Source: Candidatus Obscuribacterales bacterium
GTDB lineage: Bacteria; Cyanobacteriota; Vampirovibrionia; Obscuribacterales; Obscuribacteraceae
Length of the DNA: 64,000 nt
Assembly: GCA_965228855.1 (NCBI GenBank)
Contig: CBDDIJ010000003.1
Coordinates: 288,001-352,000 of the forward strand
Reading direction: 5' to 3'
Below the pieces are notes generated by a model. That model saw only the letters and a list, made by a program, of their open reading frames with translations, was not told the origin of the DNA and did not search any database. Numbering within the stretch: the first letter of the stretch is position 1; each line of letters starts with the position of its first letter. The translations under genes and the position numbers were made by a program. Shown here in pieces: positions 5,468 through 15,792 of this stretch.

Positions 5468-5486
5468 GATAATGAAAACGATTATC
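5468..5486. promoter_or_regulatory. Fur box
   Basis: GATAATGAAAACGATTATC, 16/19 match to consensus GATAATGATAATCATTATC, directly upstream of the tonB-like gene. Confidence 0.8.
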
Positions 5487-6295: not shown

Positions 6296-6314
6296 GGAAA
6301 TGAAAACGATTACC
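6296..6314. promoter_or_regulatory. Second Fur-like box
   Basis: GGAAATGAAAACGATTACC (13/19 to consensus); shares the exact 14-mer AATGAAAACGATTA with the box at 5468. Confidence 0.65.
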
Positions 6315-6440
6315 ATTTTAAAACAGCCGCTAAAACGTCGAACTTTTGGCTGAAAGCAATAGCAGTCGTTTTCATACGGGAGTCGATATCTCTTATGCGG
6401 ATTATTTAAATTCGCTACCAACCTGGAATCCGAAGTACTT

Positions 6441-14683: not shown

Positions 14684-14806
14684 GTTTTGCCTTGAACTTT
14701 GTTAGAGTGATTATGTCGCTGGGAGCTTTTTTGAAGTCTGGGAACTTCCTCAAAACGAGCAGCGTCGTAACGACTCAATTGTAGAAACTGCTTTCTCAAG
14801 TTGGTC

Positions 14807-15199
14807 ATGAAGCGGATTATCAAACAAGCAATCAATATGCTACTCAGCGCTGCATTTGCGCTGAGTTCGATTGCTGTTGGAAGCGCGTCCGCCTGCTCCG
14901 TGTCTGGTGCCGCCGTTGTTGCTGAGAAGATGACGATGGCGTGTTGCATGCAGCATAAAACGACAGGCATGAATAATGTTTGTCATTGCAGCATGAAGCA
15001 GGCGCCCGCCAGTGCTCCGCAGACCATAAGCACCACGCAAAGCATTGATGCGCATCTTCCCGCAGTCGAAGCGCCGGCACCAAAATCGTTTGTCGCGTTT
15101 CGTCAGGAGCCGCTCAACTCACAGTGGCTCGCACTGGATTGCCGGTTGCGCGCGCCACCACCACGGCTTTATATATTGAACTGTGCCTTCCTGAGTTAA
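14807..15199 (+). CDS. Secreted Cys/Met-rich leader protein with C-terminal RAPPP motif (DUF2946/CutF/CruR-like candidate arrest peptide)
   Basis: Signal peptide (..SASA-C); MTMACCMQH..VCHCSM metal-ligand cluster; LRAPPPRLYILNCAFLS end. Confidence 0.7.
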   Translation: MKRIIKQAINMLLSAAFALSSIAVGSASACSVSGAAVVAEKMTMACCMQHKTTGMNNVCHCSMKQAPASAPQTISTTQSIDAHLPAVEAPAPKSFVAFRQEPLNSQWLALDCRLRAPPPRLYILNCAFLS

Positions 15200-15268
15200 A
15201 TCATGGGTGTAAATCGCTGAGCCAGTGAGCTTTAGCGAGATCGTCGTACCCATATTTAATTTCAGGAG
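15188..15268 (+). promoter_or_regulatory. Long stem-loop sequestering the Shine-Dalgarno of the copper-storage gene
   Basis: TTCCTGAGTTAAAT (15188-15201) pairs with ATTTAATTTCAGGAG (15254-15268); ATGGGT/ACCCAT and TCGCTGAG/TTTAGCGA form the inner helices. Confidence 0.7.
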
Positions 15269-15277
15269 TATTTCTAT

Positions 15278-15736
15278 ATGAAACGTATTATTTTTTCGTT
15301 GCTCGTTATTTTGTCCTTTCTCGCCTTCAATCCGATGTTGAATGCCGCGACCGCAGCTGACAAAGCTAAGACCGGCGCTGCATGCAGTCACAGTGACACA
15401 TGCAAGAGCTGTCAAAAAAGTTGCGAAGATGCATTGAAGTATTGCCTTTCAAAAGGCGGTAAGCATGCTGAGAAAGCGCATATCGACGCCTTGAAAGATT
15501 GCATCGCGATGTGCAAAGTCTCTGCTGACCTCGGTTCTCGTAACTCGAGTTTGCTTCCGAAGATCAGAGAAGTCTGTGCTGAGGCGTGCAAAAAGTGCGC
15601 TGCAAGCTGTGAAGCTCTCAACGATCCCAAGTTGAAGGATTGCGTCACTGCCTGCAACGAATGCGAGAAATCCTGCACCAGCAGCACAGGATCGTCGTGC
15701 TGCACTGATGGCAAGGACAGTAAAAAAGCGAAGTAG
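15278..15736 (+). CDS. Exported four-helix-bundle copper-binding/storage protein (Csp/DUF326-like)
   Basis: Signal peptide; CKSCQKSCEDALKYCL..GGKHAE..HI..LKDCIAMC; CAEACKKCAASC; CVTACNECEKSC (CxxxC/CxxC periodicity). Confidence 0.88.
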   Translation: MKRIIFSLLVILSFLAFNPMLNAATAADKAKTGAACSHSDTCKSCQKSCEDALKYCLSKGGKHAEKAHIDALKDCIAMCKVSADLGSRNSSLLPKIREVCAEACKKCAASCEALNDPKLKDCVTACNECEKSCTSSTGSSCCTDGKDSKKAK

Positions 15737-15760
15737 TTAACTATTTCAAAAAACACGACA

Positions 15761-15792
15761 AATCGGGAGTGCGATAAACACTCCCGGTTTTC
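15761..15792 (+). terminator. Rho-independent terminator after the copper-storage gene
   Basis: AATCGGGAGTG-cgataaa-CACTCCCGGTT followed by TTT. Confidence 0.75.

Follow-up and report, generated by a model that had tools for sequence, protein, structure and literature searches.

The window—the whole stretch of 64,000 nt that was analysed—carries a two-gene module in which a small leader with a predicted signal peptide precedes a Csp-family gene. This leader–Csp module is real, conserved, and of the CutF/CruR kind; the switch, however, was probably placed wrongly at the RAPP motif of the leader by a first-pass annotation of the same DNA, which had proposed a copper-sensing arrest peptide. What is shown in sequence is a module of leader, C-terminal tail, fixed Cys-to-stop spacing, and Csp target, and, judged by sequence conservation, it is built around the stop codon, with the C-terminal tail before it and the predicted anti-SD beside it, and not around RAPP. 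We tentatively favor, at a little short of an even call, a switch at the stop codon: the Cys cluster would be exported, the tail would slow termination, copper would prolong the dwell, and the SD would open, with RAPP as an upstream checkpoint.

The leader ORF (14807–15199, + strand), called as an ORF and conserved before csp, starts with ATG, encodes 130 aa, and ends with TAA. Sequence inspection predicts a Sec-type signal peptide for aa 1–29 (14807–14893, +) with an A-S-A end, and the structure model shows an N-terminal hydrophobic helix at residues 2–26 (pLDDT ~89). It is followed by a Cys/Met/His cluster (14894–14989, +)—a candidate metal site of C30, M44, C46, C47, H50, C59, and C61—which contains the motifs MTMACCMQH and CHCSM with eight residues between them; the remaining cysteines of the leader are at positions 112 and 126. 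The cluster is invariant in the eight leaders of the RAPP clade, and the C46 and C59 columns are invariant across 41 diverse leaders. Close to the end, RAPPP (15149–15163) is followed by the 11 residues RLYILNCAFLS and then TAA; every element from which the first-pass annotation had started is present in the sequence. Searches of the leader against Pfam and NCBIfam models assign no family, and those with 41 leaders gave no meaningful match. A 96%-identical leader carries the label Candidatus Obscuribacterales in its source. In the ESM Atlas, 30 unnamed clusters resemble the leader (best 0.96), most commonly from Thermodesulfobacteriota, Bacteroidota, and Acidobacteriota and with DUF8199 and DUF6769 as the nearest named families, which serves as a lead only. 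Upstream, a putative and weak extended −10 promoter element, TG-N-TAGAGT (14700–14708, +), can be seen by eye but is uncalled by the consensus promoter scan; TG followed by TAGAGT, TAGACT, or TACAGT stands at a similar place, again by eye, in 7/8 orthologous loci.

The downstream ORF (15278–15736, +) starts 78 nt after the leader and encodes 152 aa with 17 Cys and a signal that looks Sec-type and has no twin arginine. The Cys-rich four-helix bundle that had been recognized here is identified as a Csp by both its profile and its fold: a profile of the eight orthologues matches solved Csps (3LMF, E 1.5e-17; RkCsp3, 7e-13), and the structure model shows four helices at high confidence, onto which 6ZIF is superposed at an rmsd of 1.2 Å. 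Nearest are the Csp3-type 6ZIF and 3LMF at 35–37% identity, with the Cys-lined four-helix bundle as the common element. Against TIGR04401 the protein scores 31 bits, under the cut-off of 100; the window's protein has no match in Pfam, and PF03860 is precomputed on 118/120 homologues among the matches listed. Csp1 is exported via a twin-arginine Tat signal and Csp3 is signal-less (PMC7558416; this and the papers below are cited for the available parts of their text), whereas the Csp described here bears an apparent Sec-type signal without RR though the genome has TatC. No twin arginine occurs in the first 30 aa of the 53 leader-linked Csps or at 60 loci, two overlapping sets. We infer a candidate Cu-binding protein exported via a Sec-type signal, and the locus points to Csps of this signal type. 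Between csp and the convergent gene lies the terminator-like hairpin already noted (15764–15790, +); its part at 15764–15786 folds strongly (region z −4.5), and the terminator scan calls it on the minus strand only, the U tail on the + strand being short.

The pair of genes is maintained well beyond this genome. The Csp profile matches 89/104 family genomes, and 90 of the 142 places it marks were examined for leaders by a filter of length, Cys doublets, and hydrophobic start that made no use of RAPP or the tail. Leaders were found at 53 of these 90 places, spanning 19 genera; the remainder, leaderless by the filter, comprises 20 places of a separate paralog and 17 others, two of which (L038 and L047) do show a tail-bearing leader by eye. 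The profile of the RAPP leaders has strong matches in 8/104 family genomes, each directly before Csp, but misses the RAPP-less orthologues, for which the Csp gene was the only way in. Flanking genes vary among relatives, hence the conserved unit consists of two genes, leader and csp. That the RAPP leader and csp stay paired in these 8/104 genomes, with RAPP unchanged through synonymous substitutions, goes beyond chance. In a quick Csp tree of 87 rows with weak support, three leader-negative loci being left out, the loci with RAPP cluster together (SH-aLRT 81), surrounded by loci that lack it. The tail is absent upstream of 30 Csp-like ORFs at 29 loci in other classes of the phylum. Among 1.84 billion representatives, the profile of the eight RAPP leaders has seven matches, two of which are doubtful long proteins. 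Contigs of public RNA runs yielded short pieces over csp and the leader end in three runs and one probable DNA run, and these do not bear on transcript structure or expression.

A constant element of the leader is its C-terminal tail, LYILNCAFLS-stop in the window (15167–15199, +) with the consensus [KPR]LY[IL]LxR[SA]LLI-stop. Y/F at −9 and L at −2 are present in 53/53 leaders, R at −5 in 41/53, and I at −1 in 39/53. The tail codons vary freely, and the tail is kept in 12 loci whose anti-SD falls past the stop, which argues for its selection as a peptide. The tails of the RAPP clade have drifted—C replaces R at −5 and I at −1 is missing—and may have lost an arrest role there. The spacing is equally fixed: the end of the Cys cluster lies 63–77 residues from the C-terminus in 53/53 leaders and 67–70 in the RAPP clade. 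As the latter spacing is kept, it tracks the stop and not RAPP.

RAPP itself (15149–15160, +) belongs to the candidate elongation-arrest motif W-L-A-x-D-x-x-L-R-A-P-P (15125–15160). RAPP and the upstream W-L are invariant in 8/8 leaders of the clade despite synonymous codon changes and recur in the further homologues P0001, P0006, P0015, and P0018. W107 sits eight residues ahead of R115, the same spacing as between W155 and R163 of SecM. In the long ORFs of the genome, RAPP is depleted (8 seen versus 19.7 expected), and AAPP is found 65 times versus 33.4 expected; a scan for R[AGS]PP near ORF ends returned 117 ORFs, mostly spurious. When RAPP peptides stall, the P site holds the third residue of the motif (PMC10987492, PMC12992588), and the motif does not suffice unless the upstream context is also present (PMC12992588). 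Judging from these sequence patterns, RAPP is probably still functional in the RAPP clade. Across the orthologues, it is carried by only 8/53 leaders (2/19 genera), the other 45 lacking it, and PP occurs within the last 20 residues in 17/53. Conservation of RAPP in homologues, on which the first-pass annotation had staked its proposal, thus fails at the family level. In the sister group of the RAPP clade (L029–L031), AAPPP stands at the same position and the tails are off consensus, with E at −5 and C at −1.

A further element, absent from the earlier reading, is an SD-sequestering mRNA hairpin that is now predicted over the Csp RBS (15187–15269, +). Hereby, the anti-SD TTCCTG in codons F128–L129 pairs with the Csp SD AGGAG (15264–15268) across the 78-nt gap (z −3.3; 0/200 shuffles), and the eight RAPP loci share a consensus helix of 8 bp in which one pair is compensatory, being A-U in five loci and G-C in three. 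A confident SD partner is predicted in 44/53 loci, and in 43 of them it lies within −22 to +12 nt of the leader stop, compared with 112/200 and 12/200 for control gene pairs from the genome; these controls are 200 of 256 gene pairs with spurious ORFs included, and the 53 loci are kin, so that the comparison carries no formal test. For 17/19 genera the partner is near the stop in the majority of loci, while 10/53 loci are without a confident one there. When the last 12 codons are shuffled synonymously, the natural RBS is more closed than the mean in 44/53 loci—a modest effect. No intrinsic terminator was called on the + strand of the leader–csp gap by the terminator scan; given the U-rich 3′ arms in the gap, attenuation may nevertheless be conceivable.

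With the ribosome footprint assumed to reach +13 nt from the A site, opening the RBS of the window costs 12.9 kcal/mol for naked RNA, 15.3 kcal/mol with a ribosome at RAPP, and 6.2 kcal/mol with one at the stop. In a 603-nt context, the costs are 12.7, 12.2, and 7.7, respectively, and the medians over the loci are 9.9 kcal/mol naked, 10.0 kcal/mol at the RAPP codon, and 6.4 kcal/mol with the stop in the A site. A ribosome at the RAPP codon lowers the cost by at least 2 kcal/mol in only 2/53 loci. When the blocked edge is slid along the RNA, the cost drops only past about −10 to −2 nt in 6/8 RAPP loci; in L026 and L027 the two ribosome positions differ by just 2.5 and 0.3 kcal/mol. Since in these folding models a RAPP-stalled ribosome leaves the helix closed and a ribosome at the stop codon opens it, the switch point is likely the stop codon, and by the same hairpin geometry csp would be kept OFF by an arrest at RAPP. 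RAPP as the switch, the center of the first-pass annotation, is thus supported neither by its distribution among the orthologues nor by the folding models.

The favored mechanism would hence proceed as follows. The anti-SD within the last codons of the leader would close the Csp SD, as the folding and the one compensatory pair suggest. The leader would be exported during translation, and by the time the stop codon arrives in the A site the ~70 residues would put the Cys cluster beyond the membrane. The tail might then slow termination, and copper bound to the exported cluster would lengthen the dwell—as proposed for CutF—keeping the SD open as long as the ribosome stays at the stop codon, so that Csp is made. 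In the RAPP clade only, RAPP would arrest the ribosome 12 codons earlier, short of the hairpin, and thereby hold csp OFF until the ribosome is pulled past this checkpoint and can go on to the stop. Leaders that arrest at termination are known: CliM, where a stem lies over the leader 3′ end (PMC13183943), the NSP/NAP/DGMK-stop leaders (PMC10987492), and LudP (preprint). We infer copper as the signal from the target and the cysteines only. As to the output, no Rho was found above cut-off in the genome, which is 95% complete; an output at the RBS therefore fits better than that of CruR, and a Rho-based output was rejected as unlikely.

The main rival, which we consider unlikely, retains the hairpin geometry and makes RAPP a sensor-coupled gate: without copper the arrest keeps csp OFF, copper releases it, and plain coupling opens the SD, while the tail has another job, e.g., as a degradation tag. 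The invariance of RAPP and W-L in the clade and their recurrence in the four further homologues speak for it, as do the known stalling position within RAPP, the relief of the CruR arrest by copper (PMC9426467), and the drift of the tail in this clade. Such a gate leaves unexplained, however, why 45 RAPP-less orthologues bear the same tail, spacing, and hairpin, and the Cys spacing is not shifted with RAPP. A second rival keeps the stop-codon switch and exchanges the signal, so that the leader would respond to a soft metal other than copper, to Sec load, or to the thiol redox state of the periplasm. With its Sec-type signal, a 17-Cys protein would presumably be unfolded while crossing the membrane, the CutF model invokes disulfides (bioRxiv 10.1101/2025.02.05.636593), and tail-bearing leaders precede many kinds of targets. 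Nevertheless, both profile and fold identify the target as a Csp, and the leaders before Csp carry Cys clusters whereas several of those before transporters are His- or acid-rich, which suggests a leader ligand matched to its target; we regard another signal as decidedly improbable.

Equally little, or slightly less, can be said for copper-promoted stalling at RAPP that turns csp ON as in CutF or SecM. The leader does conform to the CutF-like rule (PMC9973294), and the minimum-energy fold has its outermost pairs at about −30 nt from the stop, close to where a ribosome stalled at RAPP would end. Yet the SD helix stays closed under the RAPP footprint in both the short and the 603-nt contexts, opening is eased at the RAPP codon in hardly any locus, and RAPP itself is present in just 8/53 leaders, which makes this reading very doubtful. 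Just as remote is the absence of any regulated switch—a secreted metal-binding peptide with csp merely coupled in translation, which would account for an anti-SD at the stop—as the mature part of the leader is predicted to be unstructured (pTM 0.24, a low-confidence model) and poorly conserved (18% mean identity) and yet tail and stop spacing are fixed, a combination that fits a nascent-chain function. The position of RAPP and the stop 12 codons apart leads to opposite predictions for one point mutant: under the stop-codon switch, and likewise under the release of a RAPP arrest, csp should not be silenced by RAPP to AAPP, whereas stalling at RAPP as the ON state predicts silencing.

Among known systems, CutF of Rhodobacter capsulatus is close in layout: both are small ORFs that have a Cys motif, carry PP in their final 15 residues, and stand <100 nt before a copper-handling target; the signal peptide and the stem over the next SD are predicted ones in the present case. 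CutF-like proteins number 5,334 and precede many metal genes (bioRxiv 10.1101/2022.11.11.516240, PMC9973294); they are defined by a length of <150 aa, a PP no further than 15 residues from the C-terminus, and a same-strand neighbor within 1,000 nt (PMC9973294), and the leader has 130 aa, PP at 117–119, and its neighbor at 78 nt. Unlike CutF, it has no DUF2946 match, its PP/RAPP is dispensable across orthologues, its target is a Csp, its Pro motif is separated from the stop by a conserved tail of 10 residues, and its predicted anti-SD sits at the stop, where according to the models a ribosome stalled at RAPP would not reach it. Its motifs are CC and CxC, with C61 54 residues before R115, and not the CxxC that DUF2946 leaders have about 45 residues before RAPP. 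Of the proposed kinship with DUF2946/CutF-type leaders, the architecture is supported, with the CutF-like rule and a predicted SD hairpin, while the domain is not: DUF2946 (PF11162) gave no match for the leader at E ≤ 1 and 0/41 members at E ≤ 0.1, and none in a search of the genome in which the control was detected in 4/14. How CutF-like leaders control their neighbors is an open question (PMC12992588, PMC9973294).

[quoted passage not shown] In the present leader, on the contrary, 12 codons separate RAPP and the stop, to which the spacing is fixed, and the genome search detected no Rho. With termination-arrest leaders such as CliM it has in common a C-terminal motif other than RAPP whose distance to the stop is fixed and—for CliM—a stem that spans the leader 3′ end and the next RBS. 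Those leaders differ by their other motifs and by preceding Sec/YidC genes, CliM monitoring YidC; the available text reports no Cys sensor for CliM or NSP/NAP/DGMK-type leaders (PMC13183943, PMC10987492). HYC_CC_PP proteins of Bacteroidota (NF047658) resemble the leader in layout and tail, and three members end in Y-[IL]-[LF]-x-R-[SA]-F-L-I-stop. The suggested HMM check with this model came out negative, however, with 0/41 Obscuribacterales leaders matching; the corresponding genome search gave no match with controls likewise unmatched and is thus uninformative.

The first-pass annotation knew of no description of the leader–Csp combination, and the literature bears this out as far as it was covered, with no paper found on the pairing or on the tail. 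In the available portions, no Csp appears among the leader neighbors in PMC9426467 or the top 30 RAPP neighbor classes of PMC12992588, nor do Csp terms occur in those portions of the supplementary files that were covered. One row of the PMC12992588 list does combine RAPP and this tail before an RND adaptor. According to the same survey, RAPP uORFs are absent from many Cyanobacteriota; the locus thus places RAPP leaders in a phylum where they were reported to be largely absent.

The tail is not restricted to Csp leaders. A stop-anchored matrix from 32 distinct Csp-leader tails, run over 33,451 genome ORFs, retrieved seven ORFs at ≥12 bits, all short with a hydrophobic N-terminus, and RAPP is present only in the Csp leader. 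The six other, RAPP-less leader-like ORFs precede CzcB/CzcA (L230:4637-5044, −), CzcA (L231:3487-3825, −), a SulP transporter (L232:236-601, +), a cation/proton antiporter (L233:2334-2678, −), an unknown gene followed by a Fur-family gene (L234:149-688, +), and an unknown gene (L235:160-699, +). Their middle parts are rich in His, acidic residues, or Cys, which suggests that the ligands differ, and as the tail also stands before non-copper transporters, it is uninformative on the ligand. In GTDB, of which 36/64 parts were scanned, the tail pattern is noisy: its 119 matches comprise 92 with a short ORF or none, 14 leader-like ones, and 13 that are long or edge-cut. The tail was nonetheless found on three HYC_CC_PP members scoring above the model cut-off (Bacteroidota), in Kryptonium on a His-rich ORF that precedes a TolC, and in a Desulfobulbaceae genome on a truncated ORF upstream of an FtrD-like gene.

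It is a speculative and rather doubtful generalization that LY[IL]LxRxLLI-stop might represent an undescribed termination-arrest module of several phyla, fused to varied exported sensors for metals or ions and used at least seven times in this genome—whereby RAPP at the Csp locus would be a reversed OFF gate before a Sec-exported class of Csp. If the tail is an arrest motif, a function would be gained for the C-termini of unannotated leaders including HYC_CC_PP proteins.

Several observations were made alongside. An eighth leader (L236:4775-5176, −) before an RND adaptor and pump carries RAPP 16 residues before the stop and a variant tail, and its minimum-energy fold likewise pairs the following SD with the final codons of the leader. 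A second Csp-like paralog without leader (L237:682-1083, −, and 20 related loci) has a Sec-type signal and 9–16 Cys and forms its own branch in the Csp tree. At L147:1173-1870 (+) and L180:1173-1867 (+), a tail-bearing leader precedes a gene for a small exported protein in which CC motifs recur; the protein is metallothionein-like in composition and matches no family. Elsewhere in the window, a Fur-box-like site at 5468–5486 (three mismatches to the consensus; 0.01 expected by chance) precedes a short gene that appears TonB-like by eye, and a similar sequence at about 6297–6315 stands before an 898-aa gene with a plug-domain match, which directly follows ATP synthase genes.
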